Source of the DNA: Methanomassiliicoccales archaeon
Lineage (GTDB): Archaea; Thermoplasmatota; Thermoplasmata; Methanomassiliicoccales; UBA472
Assembly: GCA_036504055.1 (NCBI GenBank)
Contig: DASXVU010000045.1
Coordinates: forward strand, 6,147 to 70,146
Reading direction: 5' to 3'
Length of the DNA: 64,000 bases
Position numbers and translations under genes: made by a program. Shown piece by piece: positions 18,532-59,012 of this stretch. The notes under the pieces were generated by a model that saw only the letters and a program-made list of their open reading frames with translations, was not told where the DNA came from and did not search any database. Each line of letters begins with the position of its first letter. The stretch's first letter is position 1.

Positions 18532-18608
18532 TGGCGCCCGAGCCGGAATTTGAATCCGGGTCTGGAGGTTCGCAGCCTCCTAGGATATCCAAGCTACCCC
18601 ACTCGGGC
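18532..18608 (-). tRNA. tRNA-Arg (anticodon GCG), CCA encoded
   Basis: In the reverse complement the acceptor stem is GCCCGAG/CUCGGGC, the anticodon arm is GGAGG-CUGCGAA-CCUCC and the T arm is CCGGA-UUCAAAU-UCCGG, followed by G-CCA. The D stem is weak and the variable loop is 4 nt. Confidence 0.85.
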
Positions 18609-32323: not shown

Positions 32324-35300
32324 TTAGACCTTGCGGATCCTCGTTACCACCATGATCACCACGACCACGACGATCAGGGCGATGACCAGGAGCAGTGGAA
32401 GCATGATCGTGTCGATCGTGCTCTTCTGCGCCTGGGCCGACACCGTCTGTGGTTGGCTTCCGTCTACCTTCTGCGAGATGACCTTACCGTCGACCGTGGC
32501 GTTCACCCAATACGGATCGGAGACGACCTGCCTTCCGTTCACATTCTGGGTCCATCCGGTCACGTCCGCCTGATACTGGCCATTGCTGCCGGTCACACCG
32601 CTGGAGATCAGTTTTCCGTGGGCGTCACAGATGGTGACCGGGGCTCCCGCGACCAGCTTTCCGTCGGCGTTCTTGACGATGACGGTGAACTGGTTGAGCC
32701 AGGTCATTGAGCCTATATCCTCTATCTTCAGCATCCCGTCCATGGTGGTGGAGGTGATGTTGGTCGTGCTGTTATGGATAGAGTAGACATCGAACTTCGA
32801 AGCGTTCAGCGCCGACTTGGATATGACCGCACTGGAGTCGTCCAGGAACACGGCGTCGTTCCTGCACTGTATGGCCGCTCCGTTCATGGTCAGCTTGGAG
32901 TTGATCGCGTATATGCCGTTGTACACGAACGTCGGTATGGTTATGTTCCTGCTGTCCAGGTTCTTGTTCAGCCACTGCAGGACGATAAGGTTCTCCTTGA
33001 CCGTGTCGCCGAAGGATATGGTCGAGTTCTCCGCATACACCGCGTAGCTCAGCATTCCATAGGTGTTGCCCTTGGCCGTCACGTCCGAGTTGATGGCATA
33101 CATACCCACGTGGTCGAGGAGCATCGGCATCAGGGAGGCCGGCAGGATGGATGAGGCCATCAGGTCGCTCGGGCTGTCCTTCAGGGTCAGGGAGGAGGTG
33201 TCCACATAGCTGAGCACCAAGGCCAGGAGCGTCGAGTACTTGGCCACATCGTCGACGATGCGGGCATATCCGATCTCGTTGTCCTCCACGGTCACTGCGC
33301 AGTTGAACAGGAATATCTCGTTCTTGTCCAACAGGAATATGTTGGCATGGATCTTGCCCACGACGCCCTCGGCGTAGATGCCGGCCACGGAGTTCAGGAC
33401 AAAGATGTTGTCAACCACGTTGTCCAGGTTCGAGTTCCTGGCGTAGATGCCGCGCTCGTTCTGCATTATTATGCAGCTCTTGATGTTCGGCTCCGACCCA
33501 TCGTTGACGAATATTCCATCCATACCGCTGGCCACGATCGTGGTCGAGGATATGGTTGGTTTAGCGCCATCGATGAATATGCCGTTCTTGTAGTTTCCCT
33601 GGATCGTACAGGAGGTTATCGATGCGGTCGACGTGTTGCCCAGGAATAGCTCGGACCACTCGCTCACCACTGAACTGGTCATCTGCAGGTTGCCATAGAC
33701 CAGGAACAGTCCGTTGCCGCTGTAGGAATACATATTGGAGTTCCTGACGATCTGAGATCCGCCGAGGTCAACGATCAGCTGGGTGAGGCCGTTGTCGGCC
33801 GCGCCAACGGTGAAAGAGTTCACGGAATCCACTGTAAGGATGCCGAAGGGCATGATCTCGATGGCGCCGAAGAACACCACGTCGCCGTCCTTCACGGATG
33901 CTGCGGAATCGATGATCCACTTGACCTGACTTCCGGAGGGCACGTTGATGCCGTGGGCGACGTTGTCCTGGAACACGCCGTTGTATAGCGTTACGGAGTT
34001 GCTGTCAGTGATGTACAGCCCATCGTTGGCATTGTGATCGATGGTGTTGTTGCCGATGACGATATGGGTTGAGGTGGTACAGTTGTCCAGGCTTATTCCG
34101 TTCCCCTGATTCTCGCTGAGCACGTTATTCTCAATGATCGCATTGCTGCCTTCCATGGAGATCGCCGATCCGTAGGTTCCGGTAACCCTGTTGCCGGACA
34201 CAAGGACCACTCCGGCCCCTGACCCGGTGACCTGGATACCGAACTGGCCATGGGACACGGTGTTATCGGCTATGGAAACCTGGGCGTTCACTGAGGCATG
34301 ACCGTTGAAGGACAAGGGATCGAAGGTCAGGAGTACGTTCGTGTTCACACCGACGCCGGTATTGGCATCGAGAACGATGTTGTTTCCAGCCACCCGGACC
34401 CCGGTCTTAAGGGTAACATTGCCATCCCAGTATCCGACCCCTTGGTTGTGGTTGACGAAGGTTATCCCGGTGTTGTCCATGCCCTTCATGTCCAACACAT
34501 TGTTGGACACGTTGATGTCGAAATCCACGAGCGCGCGAGCCTTAAGGTCTACGACCTTGACGTATGTCCTTTGCGCGTTATTGTTGAAGTAGACTCCAAA
34601 GTTCTCATTCCCCTTTGTCGAGATGGAGTTGCCCACGATGTTGAGGCCGCCATCGACCTTCAGCGAGGCCAGGCCCTTGGTGTGAGGGTAGGCATAGATG
34701 TCGCTGGTGAAGTAGTTGTACACATTGACGGCCCTGCTGTTGTTGCCCACCAGATCGATCGAGTTGGCCTGGAAGGTGATCGAACCCGAAAGAACAGTGG
34801 CGTTACCATCGATGCTTGCCGCATTCAGATTGTCGATGTTCATCTTGACGCCGTCGAGGAAGTTGCCTACCCCGATGATGTGGTTGTTGGCGATCGATTG
34901 GGTCCCGGCCTGCGCCCTAGCGCTGCCGCCATGGGTCGCATAGGAGGTCAGGTCCGGGTTGAACTCGATCCCACCGGCGTTGTTGCCGTTCAGTGTGACG
35001 GTGTTGCGCAGGACCTGGACATTGCCCAGGCTGGCATTTGCCCACTTGTCGCCCTGGTTTGAACCGGCGACGTCCGCGAACCCTCTGGCATAGTAGCTCA
35101 CATAGACACCGTTGTACGGTGACACAAGGAGGCTTAGGTTGGTCACCGTGACGCTGTTGTCGGCGACCAGGACGTTGCCAGTGTAGGATGCTGTGGTGGT
35201 CATCTTTGCAAGCTTAACCTCGGCATAGGCGCCGATGGCGACGGTGACCGCCGTTCGGTCATTCACCAACACGGTGTTGCCCGATACGCTGAAGTCCCCA

Positions 35301-37228
35301 TTGACCGTGCCTTTTGAGCTGTCATATGCGTTGACGTAGTTCCTGGCCAAAATGGCCACGTAATGCTCATCGACGATGTTGTTGCCAGAAAGGCTGACCG
35401 TACCGGACACGGTTCCGGTGGAGTTGCCAGTCACGGTTAGGGACCTTTCTATATCCATCGCATAGGAATTCGAGACCTGGAGCGTGTTGCCAGTGGACAG
35501 GATGTTGACGTTGGCCATTGTGGTGCCGTTGGCGGCTGCGTTGGGTGCGAACAGGATGGTTATCCCACCGTTCAAGGCATCCACCGCTTGGTTGTCGTTC
35601 ACGGTCACATCGCCGTTGGCGGTGATCGTGGACTTACCGTTGGACAGGTAGCTGATATTGATCGTCACAAGGTTCCGGCACGATGTGGCCAGGTTGTTCG
35701 TGATCAATATGCCACCATTTATGGATAGGCTTGAACCATCGACCGAGTTGAATCCTGAGCGGTCCACCTCGATCATCGTTCCCGAATCTTCATTGACTGT
35801 GTTCCTGGTCGCTGTCACGGAACCGGTGAACGAGGATGCTTTGGATCCGGCTGAGGTCATACGGTCATATACATAGAGACCCCGACCGGTGATCGTGGTC
35901 ATCACATTGTTCGTGAAGGATAGGTCTGAGTTGATCATGACCGAGGCTTTGGAGCTGGCCGCCGCGATTGCGGATGTGCTGACGTATGCTCCATTGACCG
36001 CATTGAATATCTTGTTGGAATCGAGGGTCACCGCTCCTGAGATGGCCGCGGTAGAGTCCTCGTAGGCGTTCATCTGTCTCTGGACCAATATCCCGTCGCC
36101 GGCGGAGGTGATGTTGTTCCTGGATATTGTGATCGGGACATTGATGCTGGAGGTCTTTTCTCCATAGGCAACGACCTGAGCGTATGCGGTGATTCCATAG
36201 GTCTGAACGCTCCTCATGTCGTTGTTCGAGATTTGAAGGTTGCCGGTAACGCTTGCTATGTTGTTGTGAACCATCAGCGGGCTGACCAGGTCATGGATGG
36301 TGACCAGGTCGGCGTACCCAACGGCCGGACCGCTGTTGAAGCGGTTGGTGTTGATTGTCGTGTCCCCGTTCACCTGTGAGGTAGAGTTGTCATAGGAATC
36401 CAGGGCATGGGAGAAAACCACCGCAGAACGCGCCCCTGTATTGAACTGGTTGTTGTTGATCATCACGTTGCTGTTGAGCGTTACAGCGGAATTGTCTCGA
36501 GACACCACATTCTCACTGATCATGATTCCCGAACCGGTCAATCCCGGTCCGAAATAGGAGCCGGTGATCGAGATCGGTACATTGATGGTCTTGATGTTGT
36601 TGGCGTCCGAAGAAACGGTTATTACACCATAGATGTGGTTAACGCCGCTCGAGGTTGAGGTGAAATCACAGTTCGTGACCGTCAATGTTCCATCCTTTGA
36701 AACGATCTGAAAATAAATGGAGCTGAACAGAGAGTTGGCGAACTTGGAGTTGGTGAAGACCCCGGTATTGTGGATCGTTATCTGGGTCTCATTGTTTATG
36801 TTGGCATAGTTCAGGTTGACGACGGAGTTCTCGTTGCCTGTGATCCCATTCCACATCGTTACGCTGTTGTTCTTGGTGAAGGTCACCATCTTGGACGCTT
36901 GGCCATTGGCCATCAAAGAACCGTTGACAATTATCTGTTGGCCGGGATCGACCTTGACTGCAACATTCGCGCCAATTGTGAGCGTCACTCCGGTTGGCAC
37001 TGTTACTGTCTGGTTGACGATATACGGCGAGCCGGCCTCGGTCCAGGTAGTGTCGGTAGATACGTCCTGATAGACATAGGTCGGTGCGGCATTAGCGCCA
37101 GAGGCGCTCAAAAGTAGCGCGAATGCGCAGACGATCAATAATGCCCCCGCAATGAGGAGACCTTTTCGTCTGGCAAGTTTTCCTAGTATCAACTGATCGG
37201 AGCTTTTATTATGCGAATACGTGCCCAT
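32324..37228 (-). CDS. Giant (1,634 aa) surface protein: signal/anchor N-terminus, long right-handed beta-helix (PbH1-type) region, Ig-like module, C-terminal TM anchor
   Basis: The N-terminal helix is LLIAGALLIVCAFALLLSASGANA. Hundreds of residues of N/G/T/S/V-rich coils follow (…VSGNRVTGTYGSAISMEGSNAIIENNVLSENQGNGISLDNC…). A late module reads ...VKNADGKLVAGAPVTICDAHGKLISSGVTGSNGQYQ. The C-terminus is LPLLLVIALIVVVVVIMVVTRIRKV. AGGAGGA lies directly upstream of the ATG. Confidence 0.8.
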   Translation of the reverse strand: MGTYSHNKSSDQLILGKLARRKGLLIAGALLIVCAFALLLSASGANAAPTYVYQDVSTDTTWTEAGSPYIVNQTVTVPTGVTLTIGANVAVKVDPGQQIIVNGSLMANGQASKMVTFTKNNSVTMWNGITGNENSVVNLNYANINNETQITIHNTGVFTNSKFANSLFSSIYFQIVSKDGTLTVTNCDFTSTSSGVNHIYGVITVSSDANNIKTINVPISITGSYFGPGLTGSGIMISENVVSRDNSAVTLNSNVMINNNQFNTGARSAVVFSHALDSYDNSTSQVNGDTTINTNRFNSGPAVGYADLVTIHDLVSPLMVHNNIASVTGNLQISNNDMRSVQTYGITAYAQVVAYGEKTSSINVPITISRNNITSAGDGILVQRQMNAYEDSTAAISGAVTLDSNKIFNAVNGAYVSTSAIAAASSKASVMINSDLSFTNNVMTTITGRGLYVYDRMTSAGSKASSFTGSVTATRNTVNEDSGTMIEVDRSGFNSVDGSSLSINGGILITNNLATSCRNLVTINISYLSNGKSTITANGDVTVNDNQAVDALNGGITILFAPNAAANGTTMANVNILSTGNTLQVSNSYAMDIERSLTVTGNSTGTVSGTVSLSGNNIVDEHYVAILARNYVNAYDSSKGTVNGDFSVSGNTVLVNDRTAVTVAIGAYAEVKLAKMTTTASYTGNVLVADNSVTVTNLSLLVSPYNGVYVSYYARGFADVAGSNQGDKWANASLGNVQVLRNTVTLNGNNAGGIEFNPDLTSYATHGGSARAQAGTQSIANNHIIGVGNFLDGVKMNIDNLNAASIDGNATVLSGSITFQANSIDLVGNNSRAVNVYNYFTSDIYAYPHTKGLASLKVDGGLNIVGNSISTKGNENFGVYFNNNAQRTYVKVVDLKARALVDFDINVSNNVLDMKGMDNTGITFVNHNQGVGYWDGNVTLKTGVRVAGNNIVLDANTGVGVNTNVLLTFDPLSFNGHASVNAQVSIADNTVSHGQFGIQVTGSGAGVVLVSGNRVTGTYGSAISMEGSNAIIENNVLSENQGNGISLDNCTTSTHIVIGNNTIDHNANDGLYITDSNSVTLYNGVFQDNVAHGINVPSGSQVKWIIDSAASVKDGDVVFFGAIEIMPFGILTVDSVNSFTVGAADNGLTQLIVDLGGSQIVRNSNMYSYSGNGLFLVYGNLQMTSSVVSEWSELFLGNTSTASITSCTIQGNYKNGIFIDGAKPTISSTTIVASGMDGIFVNDGSEPNIKSCIIMQNERGIYARNSNLDNVVDNIFVLNSVAGIYAEGVVGKIHANIFLLDKNEIFLFNCAVTVEDNEIGYARIVDDVAKYSTLLALVLSYVDTSSLTLKDSPSDLMASSILPASLMPMLLDHVGMYAINSDVTAKGNTYGMLSYAVYAENSTISFGDTVKENLIVLQWLNKNLDSRNITIPTFVYNGIYAINSKLTMNGAAIQCRNDAVFLDDSSAVISKSALNASKFDVYSIHNSTTNITSTTMDGMLKIEDIGSMTWLNQFTVIVKNADGKLVAGAPVTICDAHGKLISSGVTGSNGQYQADVTGWTQNVNGRQVVSDPYWVNATVDGKVISQKVDGSQPQTVSAQAQKSTIDTIMLPLLLVIALIVVVVVIMVVTRIRKV

Positions 37229-41026: not shown

Positions 41027-44000
41027 TCAGCGCTTTCTTCGTGTGAACACCCCCTTCTTCACGGTAAGGTAGATGAGGAGCACGAACAGCACCATCACCA
41101 ATGCCAGGAGAATCGTTGTTTCCAGGGTCAGGGTCGCCTGCGTGGATGACGTCTTATCGCCAGTCACGGCCAGACCGCTGCTCGGGATGTTGACCTTTGG
41201 CAGTTCGGGCGAGAACACGTAGTTGAATGACGTGCTGTCGTTACCCGCCGACTGGATAAGGATGCTCGCGGTCGGGTTCAGGGCCGGGGCGACCGACGTG
41301 GAGTTCGGCAGCATTGAGAACTCGATGTACTTGAAGCTCTGGCTGGTGACGGTAACGTTCACCTGGTCCACGTAGTTCCCGGTGCTCTTCAGGGACACGT
41401 CCCATCCCTGCGCCCTCAACGCATCCCTGTTGACGACCGATACGAAGTACGTGTCGTCGATGTTGCCGTTGTTGTTTATCTTGATCTGATACCGATAGTT
41501 CGTTCCGTTGTTGGCATAGACCTGCGCTTGAGTGGCGTTGACCTCGAAACGGGGCACGATCGTGACGTTGGCCAGTGTCGTCGCCACCACCGATGAGTCG
41601 TTGGCGGAGGTAGCGGTGAACGTTATCGAGTTCTGGGTGACCTTGACCGTCTTCGACGGGGTTATGGTCATCTGGACGGTCGTGACCCCGGTCGCACCGA
41701 AATCGAGGGTTACGCTGTTCTTCGACAACGTTATGTTCCAACCGGCCAGAGAGGCGGCCAAACTGTAAGTGTCGGCCAGATCACCGGTGTTGGTCACAGA
41801 GATGTTGTACACCGCTGTCTGGTTGGCGCTCAGGGTGGCCTTCTGGGACGGATCCCAATAGACCTTGACGCTGCGAGTGCTGGCGCGTTCCAGGACGATG
41901 TTGAGCAACGTATCCGCCGTCAGCGTCTGGGTGACGGTCTTGGTGTATGGGATGTTGGATCCCTGCTCTACCAGCGTCGTCGTCGCCTTCACATCATAGC
42001 TGCCAGCGGGAAGGAGGACGGAGTAAGTGCCATCCGGCGCGCTGCTGGCTGTCATGTTCCCGACGGAAGAGAAGGTCAGAACGGACTGCACCGGCAAGGC
42101 CCCAACCGAGGTGGTGCCATGGATCGTAAACCCAGGCACCAGCTGGATGTTCATTGTCTGGTTCAGGTAGCTCGTTACCGTGACCTTGCCCAGGAATGTT
42201 CCGCTCGTACCGCCGTTGGCATACGCACTGTATGTGCCAGGCGCGAGCTGGACATTGATGGAACCGGATGCCGTGGTATAGTTGGCCCATATCGCGGTAG
42301 GCGAATCGGGCGCGAAGCTTATCGTTCCGGACGCGGCCGTCGCTCCCACTCCGATCATTGTACCGGTCACTGTACTGTTATCGAACGACCTGACAGTGTC
42401 CAGATTCAACGGGAAGGTGACTGTTCCTACATTGATGGTTGCTGCGCCGGTGTACCTCAGGTAGCGGCTCAACCCATTGAGGGTGCCGAGCGTGTGCACA
42501 TCGACCCTGACGGTCAGCTGGCTCGAGGGCATGTATACCCCCAGATAACCAGTGGCGTTGGTCGTTGCGTTGTACGTCGCCCCGTTCGGAGAGCTGAAGG
42601 AAAGAGAGGCACTGGCATTCAGCTGCTTCCCTCCATTTTGGACCTGCACCTGCACCAGGCTTGCGGGCGAGGCGATCACGTCGTAAGCGCCAGGCCCAGT
42701 AACGGTGGTCGTGTTGAACAGCGCGAGATGACCGGCCGTCGAGCTGACGTCCGCATAGACCCCGTATACCCCGGACATGAGATAGATGCTGTACGCAGCC
42801 CCGGCGGCAAAGCTCTGTGTCCTGACGTCCTTGCCGGTAAATGTCAGCGTGGTGGCTCCGCCGGCGGAGACGCCTGTCACCAATACCCGTTCCACCACCG
42901 GCAGGCTGAGTGCCGTGGCATTCTGTCCGATGCGGATGGTCAGCGGAACGTTGCCCGCCTGCAGCTGGTATTGGTCATTGCTGTCGGTGGTCACGTTCTC
43001 GCTGATAGTGATGTTATACTGTCCGGGACGGACGCTCAACGTCAGATCCCCAGCGGCCGATGTGACCCCTTTGACCGTGATCGCGCCTTTGCCGACCGCG
43101 GTCAGCGTTACGGTCAACGGCTTCAACGGCGCTCCGCCGTTGAACGTAGTGGTCAGGGAAACGGTGCGGTTCGTCGGGACAAGCTTGATGTTGTTGACCG
43201 TAGAGGTGTTGAAATCAGCGTAGGTGACGCTGTAGGTCACATAGTTGATCAGCGACTCGGTCATGGTGTAGGTGCCATTGATCACCAAGGGCACGATGTA
43301 TGCCCCGGTGCTGTCGGTATAGAAGGTGACCTGTTCGCCCGCCTGGTTCGTAACCGTGATGGTCGCGTTCCCGATGCCTTCCGACGAACCCATGGACCCA
43401 TCGAAATTGGAGTCGAACCACACCTTACCAGAGAGCGTGACCGCGTTCACCATCGTGATGTTCTGCACACCGGTCCCAGGCAAGGTAAGGTCAGCCCAAT
43501 AGACCGAGGTGCTGCCTGCGTAAACATAGATCGAGTAGACCCCCGACGGGAGCAGTACCTTTGCTCCACCAGTCTGGTTTGATACCGCATAGACTGCGGC
43601 TGGGCTCGACTTTGACTTTATGACGAACTGAACCCCGTTCAGGGTGGCCGAGACCACCTGCAGGTTAGTGGCGGTCGCTTCCGCGAGAACCATGTTCTGA
43701 GTCACCGAGCCGGCGAGGCCGGTCACGTTGGCCAGAGCAACCAGCTGGACCCCTTTGACGGTGGCGAAAGAGTACACCGTGTAATTGTCAAGGGGCACCG
43801 TGATCGAATAGTCCCCGTTGGCGTTCGCTTCCGTCCAGATCTGCCTCTTGCCATTCATTATCTCGATCTGTGCGAACGGGATGGCGTTGCCATTATTGGA
43901 CGCGTGCCCGCTCACCGTCATCGCGGAGTATATCGTGAGCGCCTTGTTGAGCGTCTCACCGGCGGTCAGGCTGTAGGTCTGGCTTCCCAGGCTCATCAGG

Positions 44001-47000
44001 GAGCTGGCCGAGCTCAGAGAATAGTTGCCGGAGAACAGCAGATCATAGGTGAACTGACCGGCGGAGCTGGTCGTGGTGTTGATCAACCGACCAGTGGTAA
44101 GGTCCCTCAACTGGAGCTGGACATTCTGCGCCACATCGCCCGAGGGCAGCATGATGACGCCCTTTACCTGGGCCGGCTTGATCGCCAGATCTTTAGTGAT
44201 GTTGCCGTTCTTCGGGTTCAGGTCAACGGAAACGCTGCCGATGATGTGACCCTGGTATATGGCATACATGTTGACGGTGGCCGGGGGCAGACCAAGGAAC
44301 GAGTAACCGGTCGCGGTGCTTACCTGGCTCTTGAAGTAACCGGTGGTCTTGTTCTGCAGCACGACGGTGGCTCCGGTGATCAGGATGTCGGTCCCGACAT
44401 CGAACACCGAATCGCCGTCCCTGTCCCAGTATGCTTTACCGGACAGGCTGGCGGCGGTCAGATTGATATCGCCGTTGATCACCTTCTGATTTCCCCCCGC
44501 TCCGGTCGCTCCCATGGCCTCAGCATAGCTGATCGGATACGATTTGGTGGATATGATCGTGGCCAGTTGGGTCACGTTGTCCAGCGTGCCATAGCTGTAG
44601 GCGATGGTGGTGTTGCCGAACGGCGCGATTATGCTGTAGTTCCCGTTGGCGTCGGTCTTGACCGTCTGGTGCGGTATGCCGTACGGATAGTACGTCGGAT
44701 CCCGGTTATCGTCCAGGGCGGTCACGTAGACGTTCGGCATTGGTTCCTTGGTCTGTTCCGACAGCACGGTGCCAGATATCGTCACTCCGTCATAGTACTG
44801 GAGGAAGACGACAGCGCTGAACAATCCACCGGCGGACAGGTCGACCGTTCCGTTCATCTTGCCGGCACTTATCAAAGCCCTGTACTCCTGCCCCTGGGTA
44901 TAGTTGATGGCTACCCAGGAATCGGTGTGGTTGCTATAGTCGGTGTACGGATTGAAATAGGCCGTACGGTAGACCATCCTGAAATGGGTCATGTTCCAGC
45001 CTTGCATAGGCTGGTAATAGCTAAGGCTTCCGCTTATGCCTGGGATGCCCTGGCTAGTCAGACCGATGTCGTAAGGCCCGTAGCCCATGAAGGCGCGGTA
45101 CAACATCGTCTTGTAGAACAGCGGGGTATAGTGTATGGCGTAACTGACGATCGTCATCGATGATGTCACGTCCGCCAGCGCATGCTCGGTACCGTATTGG
45201 TCCACCGCGGTTATGGTGTAGTAGTCCAACGGTGCGTTCGACAGGGGATCGATCCTCTGATCCGACAACTTCGCCGGTGCGTAGAATATGTTCTGACTGG
45301 TGGCCGAGAATGGGAACAGACGGCTGTCTACCGCGAAATACCCGATGTTGTAGCCGGTCAGGCCGCGCAGGTCGTGGTAAAGCGATACCAGCTTGTTCTC
45401 GCCGATCTTGGACAGTTCGACCCGGGCGGCCGCATAGTATGCGTTCAACACAGAGAGGTCGGTATCGTATGGCCCATAGATGGCTGGATTGTTCTTGACC
45501 ACGTTGACATAGTCTGACGGCCGGTACAGGATGTGATACATCTCGTTGTAGTTGACACCGTAGGTCAGGAGCAGGTCAATCGCCGAACGGGACATATCGG
45601 TGCTGTTGCTCAGGCCAACCTTCTCGATTATCCTGGTCACCATCAGAGCGATCGCTCCGGTCTCGTTCGAGCACATCAGGAACGACCCGGCCACCTGATA
45701 TCCATTCTGGAAATTGTCAGCAACCGTCGGGTGGCCGCCCGCCTGTACTGCTTCAAATCCGTAATCCCACCATGAGATATAGGCGGGTCTTTCCAGAGGG
45801 TTCGCGATGCCGCTATCCCTTTCATTCAACCATGACCATGCCGCTGGGTAATAGGTCGTTGGCAACGGCAGATCATATGAGAAGGCTCCCAAGTACCAGG
45901 TTCCATTATTAAGGTCGTATTTCGACGGCTTTAGGAAGTCTGGTGTGGCCAGGTAGATCTGCTTATCGTATGTTTTCTTGGTCTGGTTAGGAATCCCCGC
46001 ATCTAGAGCGGTCCACGCGTTGGGCAGGATGACGAGACCTAGCACCACCAGGAACACGAACACGTGCCGGAACTTGATCGATTTGCGCAGGTTGCGCAGC
46101 AAGCTGCCCCGCGAACCGGCCATCGATTTGTAGAACTCGCTGAACTGGGCCCGTTCGATGATCAGCATCAGGATCCAGCCCGCCATCACGGCGAAGGCCG
46201 GCGTGGCGTTGAAAACGAACCTCCCCGCGGAGGCGGCCATGTAGATGGACACACCCGTCCATACGACAAGGAACACCAGGTACGGGGTCAGGTTCTTAGG
46301 GATCCTGACCGCTGCATAGCCGACCCCGAACAGGGCTAGCCAGAACGTGACCGCACCGAATGACAGTGCCAGCGTAGAGAACGCCGGTGCCGTCGCCTCA
46401 GATATGGTCGAGTACAACTTGCTCTTCACCAGGTATCCTTGGCCAGATACGATGGCGTTAAAGAAGTTCGGAGATACTATATAGAACGCGATCAGCGCGA
46501 TGACCGATATCGCCGCTATGACCGGAAGGGTGATGGTCCACGGGTAATCCCTGGTCACCACGAATATCATTCCAGCTATGACCGCGACCAGGAACATCTC
46601 CACCGGGGTATCGAGCCATGTCTGGACATAGTTCATCTGGATGTACAGCGGCGCCATCACCAGGAAGGCGACGGCGAACATGATGCCTATCGATGCCACA
46701 ACACCGAGGGAATCGGCGTTCCGGAATCGATCGACCAACAGCTGAACGATCAGATATGCCAGTATGATGATGAGGACATAGGTATAACCGGTCCAGATCA
46801 TAGCCACCAGCGCGACGCACACGCCTGCCAGGGCCGCATAGAGCATTGAAACGCCGTTCAAAGACCCAAAGGACCTTAGACCTTTTTTCACCTCTGAGAA
46901 ACTGCTCCATTTGGAGACCCACCTATCCCCTTTTATGGTCTGCAATGCACGAAGCAGGAAATAGAACGCGAACACCACGAAGAACAAGACCATTGCATCG

Positions 47001-47569
47001 TGGTCAGCATCGGAGAATATCGAACGTTCGATGTTGCCCGCCATCAGGGCGAACAGTAGTGCCGCCAATATCGCTGGCTTCTTCCCGAAGGCCGCCTTGG
47101 TGAGCAGGTAGACCGGGATGGTCGTCAGGGCGCCCCATATGGCCGTCGAGAACACCAGTGCGAAGCCGAGCCCGTCCGTCAATGTCATTCCCGTCACCGT
47201 ATGCAAGAACATACCGGCTACCGCGACCGACCAATCGTACAGAGGAGGCCTTTCGTTCCTGATCCCCCATGGATAGTTGAGCATGTTGTCCTGGACGACG
47301 TGCTGACCGGTATTCGCCACGTTGTCGATAACACGCTCGTGGTAGTACGAGTCAGAACCGCCGGAGACAAGGAAACCGTTGTCAACCGAGGTCGAGTATC
47401 CAAAGTAAGTCCTGACGAAAAAGGCCAGGAATACTATTAGCACGATGATGAGCGCCGTTTGCCAGTTTCTTCCCAGCCAGGTATTCGAGAATCTCGAATT
47501 CAGTCTGGAAATTCCTGCGGAACGCTTCTTCTCGGCAGGGCTTTTCGACCCTTCCTCTGATGATGCCAT
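41027..47569 (-). CDS. aglB: Archaeal oligosaccharyltransferase AglB (STT3 family) fused to a ~1,250-aa Ig-like/CarboxypepD_reg-like/CARDB-like extension with a terminal TM helix
   Basis: The N-terminal domain is polytopic. WWDYG lies at aa 600-604 (nt 45758-45772). TISE (TIXE-type) lies at aa 388-391. Acidic loop motifs are GGSDSYYHE and SDADHD. Repeated beta-sandwich modules run from ~aa 930. The C-terminus is ILLALVMVLFVLLIYLTVKKGVFTRRKR. Confidence 0.85.
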   Translation of the reverse strand: MASSEEGSKSPAEKKRSAGISRLNSRFSNTWLGRNWQTALIIVLIVFLAFFVRTYFGYSTSVDNGFLVSGGSDSYYHERVIDNVANTGQHVVQDNMLNYPWGIRNERPPLYDWSVAVAGMFLHTVTGMTLTDGLGFALVFSTAIWGALTTIPVYLLTKAAFGKKPAILAALLFALMAGNIERSIFSDADHDAMVLFFVVFAFYFLLRALQTIKGDRWVSKWSSFSEVKKGLRSFGSLNGVSMLYAALAGVCVALVAMIWTGYTYVLIIILAYLIVQLLVDRFRNADSLGVVASIGIMFAVAFLVMAPLYIQMNYVQTWLDTPVEMFLVAVIAGMIFVVTRDYPWTITLPVIAAISVIALIAFYIVSPNFFNAIVSGQGYLVKSKLYSTISEATAPAFSTLALSFGAVTFWLALFGVGYAAVRIPKNLTPYLVFLVVWTGVSIYMAASAGRFVFNATPAFAVMAGWILMLIIERAQFSEFYKSMAGSRGSLLRNLRKSIKFRHVFVFLVVLGLVILPNAWTALDAGIPNQTKKTYDKQIYLATPDFLKPSKYDLNNGTWYLGAFSYDLPLPTTYYPAAWSWLNERDSGIANPLERPAYISWWDYGFEAVQAGGHPTVADNFQNGYQVAGSFLMCSNETGAIALMVTRIIEKVGLSNSTDMSRSAIDLLLTYGVNYNEMYHILYRPSDYVNVVKNNPAIYGPYDTDLSVLNAYYAAARVELSKIGENKLVSLYHDLRGLTGYNIGYFAVDSRLFPFSATSQNIFYAPAKLSDQRIDPLSNAPLDYYTITAVDQYGTEHALADVTSSMTIVSYAIHYTPLFYKTMLYRAFMGYGPYDIGLTSQGIPGISGSLSYYQPMQGWNMTHFRMVYRTAYFNPYTDYSNHTDSWVAINYTQGQEYRALISAGKMNGTVDLSAGGLFSAVVFLQYYDGVTISGTVLSEQTKEPMPNVYVTALDDNRDPTYYPYGIPHQTVKTDANGNYSIIAPFGNTTIAYSYGTLDNVTQLATIISTKSYPISYAEAMGATGAGGNQKVINGDINLTAASLSGKAYWDRDGDSVFDVGTDILITGATVVLQNKTTGYFKSQVSTATGYSFLGLPPATVNMYAIYQGHIIGSVSVDLNPKNGNITKDLAIKPAQVKGVIMLPSGDVAQNVQLQLRDLTTGRLINTTTSSAGQFTYDLLFSGNYSLSSASSLMSLGSQTYSLTAGETLNKALTIYSAMTVSGHASNNGNAIPFAQIEIMNGKRQIWTEANANGDYSITVPLDNYTVYSFATVKGVQLVALANVTGLAGSVTQNMVLAEATATNLQVVSATLNGVQFVIKSKSSPAAVYAVSNQTGGAKVLLPSGVYSIYVYAGSTSVYWADLTLPGTGVQNITMVNAVTLSGKVWFDSNFDGSMGSSEGIGNATITVTNQAGEQVTFYTDSTGAYIVPLVINGTYTMTESLINYVTYSVTYADFNTSTVNNIKLVPTNRTVSLTTTFNGGAPLKPLTVTLTAVGKGAITVKGVTSAAGDLTLSVRPGQYNITISENVTTDSNDQYQLQAGNVPLTIRIGQNATALSLPVVERVLVTGVSAGGATTLTFTGKDVRTQSFAAGAAYSIYLMSGVYGVYADVSSTAGHLALFNTTTVTGPGAYDVIASPASLVQVQVQNGGKQLNASASLSFSSPNGATYNATTNATGYLGVYMPSSQLTVRVDVHTLGTLNGLSRYLRYTGAATINVGTVTFPLNLDTVRSFDNSTVTGTMIGVGATAASGTISFAPDSPTAIWANYTTASGSINVQLAPGTYSAYANGGTSGTFLGKVTVTSYLNQTMNIQLVPGFTIHGTTSVGALPVQSVLTFSSVGNMTASSAPDGTYSVLLPAGSYDVKATTTLVEQGSNIPYTKTVTQTLTADTLLNIVLERASTRSVKVYWDPSQKATLSANQTAVYNISVTNTGDLADTYSLAASLAGWNITLSKNSVTLDFGATGVTTVQMTITPSKTVKVTQNSITFTATSANDSSVVATTLANVTIVPRFEVNATQAQVYANNGTNYRYQIKINNNGNIDDTYFVSVVNRDALRAQGWDVSLKSTGNYVDQVNVTVTSQSFKYIEFSMLPNSTSVAPALNPTASILIQSAGNDSTSFNYVFSPELPKVNIPSSGLAVTGDKTSSTQATLTLETTILLALVMVLFVLLIYLTVKKGVFTRRKR

Positions 47570-57400: not shown

Positions 57401-58075
57401 CTTCGTGCCGTAGCGCTCGTTGTACTCGACCATGACACGGTTAGGCGCAAGGTCCTCAAGGGTGATCAGGACCCTCTCTGTTCCGCCGATTATGAAATAT
57501 CCACCGGGGTCCATGGGGTCCTCGCCGGCCTTCATCAGGCGCTGGCTGTACTCATGGTCGTTGATCTCCCTCTCCTGCTCCATGTTCTCTTTGTAGAGGG
57601 TGCACTTCTTTGACTTGACCATGACCGGCAGGTCACCGATGTGGACCCTTTCCGGCTCCTTCTCGATGCCGTCCTCGACGACAGTAAAATCCAGATAGAC
57701 TGGGGCCAGATAGTTCAGGTTCCTGAGCCTGGCCTCCATCGGGGTGAGGTCGTGGACGTAACCGTTCGCCTCGCGGACGACCGGCAGCCCGACATGTATG
57801 GTCGGACGAGACTGGTTGTCGATGTTCCCAGTTTTCTCATCCCGCTTCCTTCCGACGCGGATCTCCACGATCCTGCCATCGGTCTTGTCCGGGTCGAGCC
57901 TGATGAACCCTCGGTCCAGGTCCTCCGCCGACACACGCAGGTTGTCGACGATCTTCTGCATCCTGCTGTTCGGGTTGTCCAACGTCGACAGGAAGTCGTC
58001 AAAGCTGGAGATATGATGATTTACAATGCTTCTTTCTTTGAAATAGAGTTCGACTAGGTCACGCAACGAATTCAC
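54476..58075 (-). CDS. rpoB: DNA-directed RNA polymerase subunit B (unsplit Rpo2)
   Basis: A single 1,199-aa ORF carries the B'' and B' regions together (…[13 protein letters not shown]…, [14 protein letters not shown]-terminal Zn ribbon CGHMA...CPVCG). Confidence 0.95.
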
Positions 58076-58344
58076 CCTCTGACAACTAAGCGATAGGCAA
58101 CGGTGGTCTCCGCGGTCGCGCTTCGGCGCACGATCTTGACCACTCTTCCCTCGGTGATAGGGCCCTCAAGGTTCTCCAGAAGCCTGATGCAGGCGTCTCC
58201 CTTTCGGATCTTCGGCAACTGGTCCTTCTGAATCCTCAAGGAGGCCAGTACCTTCTTGGTTTCCTCGTCCGATAACAAATAATGCTCTGGCACGAGGTCG
58301 TGCTCTAAGACGTTAAACTGTACAGTGTCGACCATAGCTATCAC
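58072..58344 (-). CDS. rpoH: DNA-directed RNA polymerase subunit H (Rpo5)
   Basis: [18 protein letters not shown]...[13 protein letters not shown] is typical of RpoH. A GAGGTGA Shine-Dalgarno-like sequence precedes the ATG. Confidence 0.9.
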
Positions 58345-58399: not shown

Positions 58400-58481
58400 T
58401 GCATCGGAATCTCTCGAAACGGATGTTCACTTTTCGATCTCCCATGTCGTTTCTTTGCCTACGCAAGCGGGCCTGAAGGGA

Positions 58482-58511
58482 TTTTCGACATGACGGAGTT
58501 ACCGTCTATGA
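58482..58511 (-). other. Predicted tRNA intron 2 (30 nt, after T-loop position 59)
   Basis: The RNA is U-CAUAGACGG-UAACU-CCGUCAUG-U-CGAA-AA. A 4-bp UUCG/CGAA helix is flanked by AAU bulges, with an inner hairpin. Splicing restores the T-loop UUCGAAU. Confidence 0.6.
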
Positions 58512-58550
58512 TTCGAACCCTTGGCCAGCTGGTTAAAAGCCAGCTGCTCT

Positions 58551-58579
58551 TTCTAGGGACGCATGTTGCCATACGTCCT
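58551..58579 (-). other. Predicted tRNA intron 1 (29 nt, after D-loop position 20)
   Basis: The RNA is A-GGACGUAUG-GCAA-CAUGCGUCC-CUAG-AA. It forms a 9-bp hairpin with a GNRA loop. A 4-bp CUAG/CUAG helix is flanked by 3-nt GUA and AAA bulges, which is bulge-helix-bulge-like. The junction may slide by 1-2 nt. Confidence 0.6.
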
Positions 58580-58801
58580 ACCTAGCTGAGCTACAGGCCC
58601 TTGGTAGGTATGCCGGCGTGCAGAGCCGAGAGAATCCGGTGCCGTTATTTAATCTTTCTCTTCAACCCAAGGAAAACCAAAAGCTAACCTAGGTTTCCGA
58701 CATGTCAAGTGTCGATATGCTATCATTATCGATAGTCTAGATGAGAACTTATTTGTTTGCGATGTCATAGAATGATTAATTGCTATCTTTGGAATCCCAC
58801 C

Positions 58802-58844: not shown

Positions 58845-59012
58845 ATGGAGAATGAGAAAGTCTGCAGCTCATGCGGCAAGAGATTGACCGGAAAGGGTAT
58901 CACCTTCTTCAAGTGCCCCCAGTGTGGTGTCACCGAGATCGGGAGATGCTCCAACTGCCGCGACCAGAGTGTAAAGTATAAGTGTGACAAGTGTGGGTTC
59001 ACCGGACCTTAA
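58845..59012 (+). CDS. Four-CxxC zinc-ribbon microprotein (55 aa; COG2888 / HVO_2753-like), absent from the supplied ORF track
   Basis: My translation is MENEKVCSSCGKRLTGKGITFFKCPQCGVTEIGRCSNCRDQSVKYKCDKCGFTGP*. It has four CxxC pairs and sits 11 nt upstream of aEF-1beta, the position conserved in many archaea. Confidence 0.75.
   Translation: MENEKVCSSCGKRLTGKGITFFKCPQCGVTEIGRCSNCRDQSVKYKCDKCGFTGP

Follow-up and report, generated by a model that had tools for sequence, protein, structure and literature searches.

A tRNA-Lys(UUU) gene with two predicted non-canonical introns beside rpoH in Methanomassiliicoccales and related Thermoplasmata

We analysed a stretch of 64,000 nucleotides (nt) from a Methanomassiliicoccales archaeon (contig DASXVU010000045.1 of assembly GCA_036504055.1; the whole stretch is called the window below) that carries a tRNA-Lys(UUU) gene with one short insert in its D-loop and another in its T-loop. 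The gene lies on the minus strand, and rpoH follows 132 nt downstream, recognized by its match to PF01191; an unsplit rpoB (1199 amino acids, aa) and rpoA' come next. Read on the minus strand, the gene (58468-58600) is GGGCCUG UA GCUC AGCUAGGU[AGGACGUAUGGCAACAUGCGUCCCUAGAA]A GAGC A GCUGG CUUUUAA CCAGC UGGCC AAGGG UUCGAA[UCAUAGACGGUAACUCCGUCAUGUCGAAAA]U CCCUU CAGGCCC G, with the inserts in brackets. The acceptor stem pairs GGGCCUG with CAGGCCC and is followed by the discriminator G, the D-stem pairs GCUC with GAGC and the T-stem pairs AAGGG with CCCUU. The anticodon arm GCUGG-CUUUUAA-CCAGC is uninterrupted in the window, and no intron is present at the canonical position 37/38. An original prediction, made by a model that had read the window, had described this gene just upstream of rpoH, and its coordinates, its acceptor pair, its anticodon arm free of a 37/38 intron and all the helices and loops it listed were found in place. 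The features of the locus are collected in Table 1.

Table 1. Coordinates of the interrupted tRNA-Lys(UUU) gene and of the features flanking it in the window. L numbers are our labels for related loci.
Feature	Position	Strand	Description or basis
tRNA-Lys(UUU) gene	58468..58600	-	precursor body 133 nt, mature form 74 nt, CCA not encoded
Exon 1 (GGGCCUGUAGCUCAGCUAGGU)	58580..58600	-	acceptor 5' strand, U8 A9, D-stem 5' strand, D-loop bases 14-20
Predicted intron 1, D-loop 20/21, 29 nt	58551..58579	-	sequence read, fold, absence in L019 with exact junction
Exon 2	58512..58550	-	A21, D-stem 3' strand, anticodon arm (UUU), variable loop, T-stem 5' strand, T-loop bases 54-59
Predicted intron 2, T-loop 59/60, 30 nt	58482..58511	-	sequence read, fold, absence in L012, L019 and L084 with exact junctions
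Exon 3	58468..58481	-	U60, T-stem 3' strand, acceptor 3' strand, discriminator G73
TATA-like box TTAAATA	58646..58652	-	46-52 nt upstream of the tRNA 5' end, purine-rich stretch before the box
rpoH (RNA polymerase subunit H, 87 aa)	58072..58335	-	Pfam PF01191; synteny anchor, not part of the tRNA

Both inserts have the structure that was originally described for them. Insert 1 contains a hairpin of 9 base pairs (bp), GGACGUAUG/CAUGCGUCC, with one G-U pair and a GCAA loop, and its core is a 4-bp CUAG/CUAG helix with the bulges GUA and AAA on either side. In this core the CUAG of the insert pairs with D-loop bases C16-G18; the 5' bulge is G19 U20 | A and the 3' bulge is A A | A21, where the bar marks the predicted splice site. 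Insert 2 has a UUCG/CGAA helix with an AAU bulge on either side, formed by pairing of its CGAA with U54-G57, and the bulges read A58 A59 | U on the 5' side and A A | U60 on the 3' side. Its inner hairpin, CAU(A)GACGG-UAACU-CCGUCAUG, is followed by one extra U.

The 133-nt precursor gave a minimum free energy of -64.1 kcal/mol (z = -7.1), and none of 200 shuffled sequences was as stable. The minimum-free-energy structure is a cloverleaf with D and T arms lengthened by both inserts, exactly as predicted, so the fold check named in the original prediction came out in its favor. ARAGORN, run on the window with and without the canonical-intron option, left the unspliced tRNA-Lys uncalled and reported two other tRNAs, both intron-less. 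In addition, the Rfam tRNA model scored the unspliced gene at 17.3 bits against a threshold of 29; finders restricted to the canonical position do miss this gene, as had been anticipated. When 58551-58579 and 58482-58511 were deleted, ARAGORN called the resulting 74-nt sequence as tRNA-Lys(ttt). The spliced D-loop is AGCUAGGUA and the spliced T-loop is UUCGAAU, the textbook loops that symmetric cuts in the bulges had been expected to restore. In the spliced cloverleaf the acceptor stem has 7 bp, the D-stem 4 bp and the anticodon and T stems 5 bp each; the anticodon loop is 7 nt long, with UUU at 34-36, and the bases for tertiary interactions are all present (U8, A14, G18 G19, A21, U54 U55 C56, A58 and C61). 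The junction bases are repeated, which leaves three equivalent cut placements for insert 1 and five for insert 2, all giving the same mature sequence. The letters themselves do not fix the cuts; their placement at 20/21 and 59/60 comes from the rule that cleavage by the endonuclease follows the second base of a bulge.

The RpoH protein was used to find relatives of the locus. Genomes with 98-99% identical RpoH are labelled uncultured Methanomassiliicoccales and come from peat and soil; matches at 59-68% identity belong to Methanomassiliicoccus spp., RumEn M1 and PtaU1.Bin124, and a match at 40% identity belongs to a Thermoplasmatales archaeon. The host is a member of Methanomassiliicoccales, Thermoplasmata, in agreement with the euryarchaeal origin guessed before. 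A tRNA-Lys gene stands upstream of rpoH in every locus found via RpoH, and the exon 1 block UAGCUCAGCUAGGU is unchanged in all 19 of them. The loci of Methanomassiliicoccus spp. and RumEn M1 (L013-L018) carry both inserts at the same positions with different inner sequences. PtaU1.Bin124 (L012, 5777-5879) has the D-loop intron only, and the Thermoplasmatales archaeon (L019) has no intron. ARAGORN calls the L019 gene, which is identical to the predicted mature tRNA at 72/74 bases and differs from it only at the pair 27-43. This natural intron-less orthologue also served as a proxy for the covariance score of the mature form, from which it differs at one stem pair (2/74 bases): the Rfam tRNA model gave it 74.2 bits against the threshold of 29, well on the side that the original prediction required of a functional gene. 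Because L019 and L012 lack introns precisely there, the predicted exon junctions are those of natural intron absence, and cutting behind the second base of the bulges reproduces the intron-less orthologue's sequence exactly. The T-loop intron is also exactly missing, with the D-loop intron retained, from L084 (from 3141, minus strand); like L012, this locus is close kin of two-intron genes. The state of L012 and L084 suggests either a clean intron loss or a later gain in the sister lines.

These junctions bear on whether the inserts leave the RNA at all. A mature tRNA that retained them, with D and T arms enlarged as lineage-specific expansions, would be compatible with the very stable fold of the precursor (-64 kcal/mol), but it would keep G18 and U54-G57 sequestered. 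The tertiary contacts between D-loop and T-loop need these bases in any elongator tRNA. Furthermore, relatives without one or both inserts lack them exactly at the bulge positions, the inserts range from 27 to about 170 nt in length with free change of their inner sequence, as introns do, and their geometry is that of a substrate of the archaeal splicing endonuclease EndA. We regard retention of the inserts as very improbable.

To describe the breadth of the trait, metagenome contigs were scanned for the D-loop intron core GCUCAGCUAGGU-N(20-50)-CUAGAAAGAGC, which returned at least 120 matches. More than 130 further loci with the D-loop intron were obtained, and most of them have the T-loop intron too. 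Exons and introns were parsed by anchors, as a MAFFT alignment of full precursors misplaces the intron gaps. Of 140 occurrences 121 were parsed, and the 19 left out lie at contig ends, have a mismatch in the anticodon stem or carry very long T-loop introns. Counts of loci and of distinct introns given here and below are those among the matches listed. The anticodon is UUU in all parsed loci. The D-loop and T-loop introns occur together in 63/121, and both are joined by a 37/38 intron in 51/121; four loci have the D-loop intron only, two have D-loop and 37/38 introns, and one (L019) has none. The T-loop intron is about 115-170 nt long, rather than about 30 nt, in L062 (from 613, minus strand), L091 (from 780, minus strand) and L132 (from 375, plus strand), where the 3' exon with its usual ...GAAAAUCCCCGCGGGCCCG end lies far downstream. 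The third intron, at the canonical 37/38 position and 20-66 nt long, was seen in tRNA-Lys(UUU) of soil Thermoplasmata (L024, L025, L028, L052 and at least 47 others), which makes three introns in one tRNA gene outside Crenarchaeota.

Nearly all related loci have rpoH/rpoB downstream of the tRNA, and the RpoB N-terminus is 54-85% identical to that of the window. NCBI names the members of the RpoH cluster Thermoplasmata archaeon, Candidatus Thermoplasmatota archaeon, and Euryarchaeota or Methanobacteriota archaeon, and all nameable lineages with the interrupted gene are Thermoplasmata. Because the intron-bearing loci recur with rpoH synteny and Thermoplasmata names, we assign the trait to a large Thermoplasmata clade and not to one organism. 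The scope of the original prediction was too small in this respect: the gene is not a one-off, and it often has a third intron. A literature search on tRNA introns of Methanomassiliicoccales or Thermoplasmata found no paper describing such introns.

Distinct versions among the matches listed number 83 for the D-loop intron (27-55 nt), 50 for the T-loop intron (27-40 nt) and 42 for the canonical intron. Conservation is seen in the exons and the bulge-helix-bulge (BHB) cores; variation lies in the inner hairpins, where the changes compensate each other. The constancy of the exon 1 block in the metagenome loci is uninformative, since the search pattern mostly demands it; the pattern also sets the CUAG of the D-loop intron and the AA of its 3' bulge, and both are unchanged in the RpoH-found loci as well. 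An inner helix of at least 3 bp sits flush on the central helix in 83/83 D-loop introns, where 4.8 are expected after shuffling. In the D-arm motif (19 distinct introns of 29 nt) 92.6% of cells are paired, compared to 28-46% once the partners are slid; both sides are altered in four pairs, and the covariation score was reached by 0/500 shuffles. In the T-arm motif (11 distinct introns of 30 nt) pairing is 100%, compared to 30-66% with slid partners; four pairs are altered on both sides, and the central helix shows a single change, from U-A to U-G. Within the window's own clade five exon columns vary, namely two compensating stem pairs and one variable-loop base, and intron changes are confined to the inner hairpins. 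Compensatory exon changes among relatives were found at 27/43 and 49-50/64-65. The inserts had been called bulge-helix-bulge-like; the fold agrees with this, and the helices are kept by compensatory changes in relatives.

A TATA-like box 45-55 nt upstream of the tRNA is conserved across diverse orthologous loci. From the usual archaeal distance between TATA box and start, TTAAATA is probably the promoter and the leader probably about 20 nt long (a scan for bacterial promoters and terminators is not meaningful for an archaeal window). Because exons, cores, covariation, promoter box and synteny are all conserved, we read this pattern as that of a working gene with working introns and not of a pseudogene. 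A decaying copy, broken by two insertions and backed by a working gene elsewhere in the genome, would explain why standard finders reject the unspliced sequence. However, strong constraint on the exons, with stem changes that compensate each other, is seen over about 140 loci at class-level divergence, the insert boundaries and helix cores are conserved with covarying inner stems, and promoter box and synteny have been kept; moreover, no tRNA-Lys whatever was detectable in M. luminyensis (PMC4153887). There is very little room left for a pseudogene. A chance resemblance or an assembly artefact could be suspected of a single window read, but the same or near-same genes were found in independent ENA, JGI, Logan and NCBI assemblies, and the fold has the z value given above. 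Recurrence in about 140 independent assemblies together with covariation puts the architecture far beyond chance, and we treat this last alternative as refuted.

Both predicted introns have two 3-nt bulges on opposite, cleaved strands with a 4-bp helix between them, and the splice sites fall inside the bulges. In intron 1 the inner helix is flush, and two bases without a partner, A14 and G15, separate the D-stem from the central helix opposite the 3' bulge. They place the 3' splice site of intron 1 in a 3x2 internal loop, and the motif is an HBh'-like relaxed form. In intron 2 the T-stem is flush, and in the window one U stands opposite the 5' bulge (alternatively, the helix has 5 bp and the bulge 2 nt). 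Among the T-loop introns of the matches listed, 13/50 distinct versions are strict and 27/50 have an extra base opposite the 5' bulge. A self-splicing group I/II intron was rejected for either insert: such introns have a core of hundreds of nt, compared to 29 and 30 nt here, and an Rfam intron match is absent from the region.

The splicing endonuclease was sought by several routes. tblastn with M. jannaschii EndA (checked against PDB 1a79) and with P0227 found no endA match in the window and the fetched loci, and a protein search with an A. fulgidus EndA fragment gave 48 matches with zero from Thermoplasmata. A mixed profile returned three Thermoplasmatota proteins, and a profile of those three returned P0227, a 351-aa protein named tRNA-intron lyase from a Methanomassiliicoccales archaeon (CP070739.1; L020:3001-4056). 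The enzyme type, which the original prediction had wanted determined, could in this way be given for the order but not from the window or fetched loci. Pfam domains of P0227 follow the order PF02778-PF01974-PF02778-PF01974 (N-C-N-C). Its N-terminal unit aligns across the whole M. jannaschii enzyme, with Phe and Ser at the positions of the catalytic Tyr and His, and its C-terminal unit retains the Tyr/His/Lys triad. These features identify P0227 as an alpha'2-type endonuclease of tandem units, the C-terminal one predicted to be catalytic and the N-terminal one structural. Its best match among solved structures is an engineered M. kandleri beta-alpha fusion (PDB 5x89), above the alpha'2 enzymes of A. 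fulgidus or T. acidophilum. Five related Thermoplasmata EndAs share the features of P0227, and the Thermoplasmata-named EndAs in a lineage-directed search are all two-unit proteins of about 310-360 aa. Similar 351-aa proteins, looked up by cluster and by contig, could not be linked through their organism to the tRNA-carrying loci. The gene for P0227 lies between a gene for a pterin-binding-domain protein and the gene for ribosomal protein L13e, and the same arrangement was seen in L021.

Taken together, these results point to a functional, single-transcript tRNA-Lys(UUU) gene of a Methanomassiliicoccales archaeon with two introns spliced by EndA, and we give this reading a probability of about 0.93. 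Both introns appear to be old, vertically inherited and common to a large Thermoplasmata clade. From the gene anatomy, splice junctions, conservation and covariation above we infer transcription, EndA cleavage, ligation and the order of these steps as follows. A TATA-box promoter of its own would drive transcription of the tRNA-Lys, and the transcript would begin with a short leader. Before splicing, the 3' end of each intron would pair with bases of the loop that it interrupts (C16-G18 in the D-loop, U54-G57 in the T-loop) to give a 4-bp helix, and two 3-nt bulges beside this helix would complete a bulge-helix-bulge motif. EndA would cut each bulge after its second base, and an RtcB-type ligase would join the three exons and circularise the introns. 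RNase P, RNase Z and the CCA-adding enzyme would then complete the tRNA ends.

Several observations weigh against this reading. The ubiquity of the D-loop intron in the metagenome loci is by construction, as the scan pattern requires it; T-loop and 37/38 introns are not required. A second, intron-less tRNA-Lys(UUU) may exist elsewhere in the window's genome. Both window motifs depart from the strict hBHBh' form, the class of substrate ascribed to alpha4 and alpha'2 endonucleases; the bulges had been called slightly relaxed, and this point is sharpened by the loop-less alpha'2 EndA of the order. An alpha'2 enzyme would be attributed to the window's host at the level of the order, P0227 coming from another genome of it (CP070739.1). 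Wild-type A. fulgidus alpha'2 EndA hardly cuts D-loop BHB introns in vitro (PMC3241643, PMC5829648). P0227 has no Crenarchaea-specific loop (CSL), a lysine-bearing insert between strands beta3 and beta4 at the site defined in PMC3241643: this site has the length of that of A. fulgidus, and the 10-residue A. pernix insert DVEKPRGADF is missing. Likewise, the ARMAN-specific loop (ASL) is missing from P0227, in which the gap between Tyr and His is 7 residues compared to 14 in ARMAN-2; the placement of this loop between Tyr and His is our own reading of the ARMAN-2 alignment.

The introns could be real and the alpha'2-type EndA of the order still insufficient alone, so that a second subunit or paralogue with a specificity loop, an accessory factor or a modification that tightens the motif would be needed. 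By the rule in the literature, efficient cutting of introns that are relaxed or lie outside the anticodon is reserved to the loop-bearing (alpha-beta)2 and epsilon2 enzymes, and the insert at the CSL site is missing from P0227 as well as from the five related Thermoplasmata EndAs. On the other hand, the Thermoplasmata-named EndAs of the lineage-directed search are uniformly of the two-unit kind, and in M. kandleri a D-loop HBh' intron is matured in vivo even though the enzyme there is loop-less and performs poorly in vitro (PMC5829648). The strict fraction of T-loop introns also speaks against a general need for help. We consider the involvement of such a helper unlikely, though with appreciable weight.

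A bolder proposal for the two-intron gene can be put forward tentatively, at somewhat less than even odds. A class-level Thermoplasmata clade, comprising Methanomassiliicoccales and soil and wetland relatives, may have a loop-less two-unit alpha'2 enzyme as its sole endonuclease and may long have kept relaxed D-loop and T-loop introns, often with a 37/38 intron as well, in its sole tRNA-Lys(UUU) gene. If so, alpha'2 enzymes would process non-canonical introns efficiently in vivo by an undescribed route, and the accepted link between diverse introns and (alpha-beta)2 or epsilon2 enzymes would not be the whole rule. Positions held so constant would then suggest that the introns are kept for a function, for example blocking the integration of mobile elements into this tRNA gene or ordering the maturation of tRNA-Lys.

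Some further features of the window and its relatives were recorded. A search for other hidden tRNAs in the window (ARAGORN intron option, a regular expression for the T-arm and a permissive Rfam scan) returned only chance matches in coding regions. A tRNA-Arg(GCG) at 18535-18608 (minus strand) was called by ARAGORN and missed by both whole-window Rfam scans; because a local Rfam scan gives it 53.5 bits, we take it as a real gene dropped by Rfam speed filters. About 21-26 nt past the 3' end of the tRNA-Lys, a purine-rich box (AGGUGA or AAGGAGAAGG) precedes AUGG in many loci of the Methanomassiliicoccales clade; examples are the window (58400-58467, minus strand), L008, L012, L013, L026 and L056. 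The frame of 31-41 aa after this box and AUGG spans the rpoH TATA box, and its peptide is poorly conserved. Divergent from the tRNA, a 55-aa frame with four CxxC pairs occupies 58845-59012 (plus strand), and its counterpart in L001 is labelled PF07754 (Ribosomal_aS21). Two very long frames, of 2180 aa (41027-47569) and 1634 aa (32324-37228), lie on the minus strand of the window.

As to annotation, ARAGORN and Rfam scans overlook an essential tRNA in a much-studied order, whose methanogens live in the gut and in the environment, and in relatives of this order, and tRNA-based completeness estimates of metagenome-assembled Thermoplasmata genomes are affected. The case of M. luminyensis illustrates this. 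A search by Borrel et al. (2014) with tRNAscan, TFAM, ARAGORN and BLASTN detected no tRNA-Lys in this species, and the authors blamed missing sequence (PMC4153887). The interrupted gene is present in other Methanomassiliicoccus genomes (L013, L017) and probably explains the undetected tRNA-Lys of M. luminyensis. Failure of detection is the outcome that the architecture predicts, which argues against an intron-less backup copy in Methanomassiliicoccus. The same report hints that tRNA-Lys(CUU) may be interrupted as well; no tRNA-Lys(CUU) was found in the window and the fetched loci. As for mechanism, relaxed introns fixed in an essential tRNA across a clade with an alpha'2-like enzyme would offer a natural pair of substrate and enzyme for tests of substrate range. 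In addition, a single syntenic locus that ranges from zero to three introns is a clean system for dating the gain and loss of tRNA introns.

Non-canonical or multiple BHB introns are known from Crenarchaeota, above all Thermoproteales, and from Thaumarchaeota, Nanoarchaeum, Korarchaeum and ARMAN; among Euryarchaeota they are known from M. kandleri and M. thermautotrophicus (PMC4033280, PMC8450103). According to reviews, Euryarchaeota whose endonuclease is of the alpha4 or alpha'2 type are limited to one intron per gene, at the canonical position and with a strict motif (PMC4090602, PMC4033280). The closest case is the pre-tRNA-Glu(UUC) from M. kandleri, which has a relaxed HBh' intron at 20b/21 together with a canonical intron, and whose loop-less enzyme cuts the HBh' motif poorly in vitro (Kaneta et al. 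2018, PMC5829648). It shares with the tRNA-Lys gene a euryarchaeal host, nearly the same D-loop position, a relaxed motif, several introns and a loop-less endonuclease. However, it is another tRNA, and its enzyme consists of separate alpha and beta subunits, whereas P0227 has both units on one polypeptide. The second non-canonical intron lies here in the T-loop, and the trait spans a class and not the single species M. kandleri. The mature M. kandleri tRNA has been seen by RNA-seq, whereas the tRNA-Lys described here is known from sequence alone.

The multi-intron tRNAs of Thermoproteales and other Crenarchaeota, such as A. pernix tRNA-Thr(UGU) with its D-loop intron, likewise have short, protein-spliced, non-canonical introns with BHB or relaxed motifs (PMC3241643, PMC4033280). 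Up to three introns occur per gene in these tRNAs too, and finders limited to 37/38 miss them. In contrast, Crenarchaeota have an (alpha-beta)2 EndA with the Crenarchaea-specific loop, and their introns are scattered over tRNAs and positions with fast turnover, whereas here two positions are fixed across a large clade and the recovered EndA is loop-less (the loci compared were all found via tRNA-Lys or rpoH). Thaumarchaeota are similar in being mesophilic and in having many non-canonical BHB introns, for whose detection a dedicated covariance model was needed (PMC8450103). They differ in belonging to another phylum and in having alpha2-beta2-type enzymes (PMC4090602), and introns of Thermoplasmata are unmentioned in PMC8450103. 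The pylT gene of Candidatus Methanohalarchaeum thermophilum HMET1, also a euryarchaeal methanogen, has one or two predicted BHB introns (PMC9071458); we liken it to the present gene without comparing intron positions, and it differs in being a tRNA-Pyl, in its lineage and in being described from a single organism. Protein-spliced non-canonical tRNA introns were already known, and what is new here is the lineage, the breadth and the enzyme context. The value of the present case lies in four points, which are the lineage, the class-wide conservation of two fixed positions in a single tRNA, an endonuclease type that does not seem to match, and the consequence for tRNA annotation.

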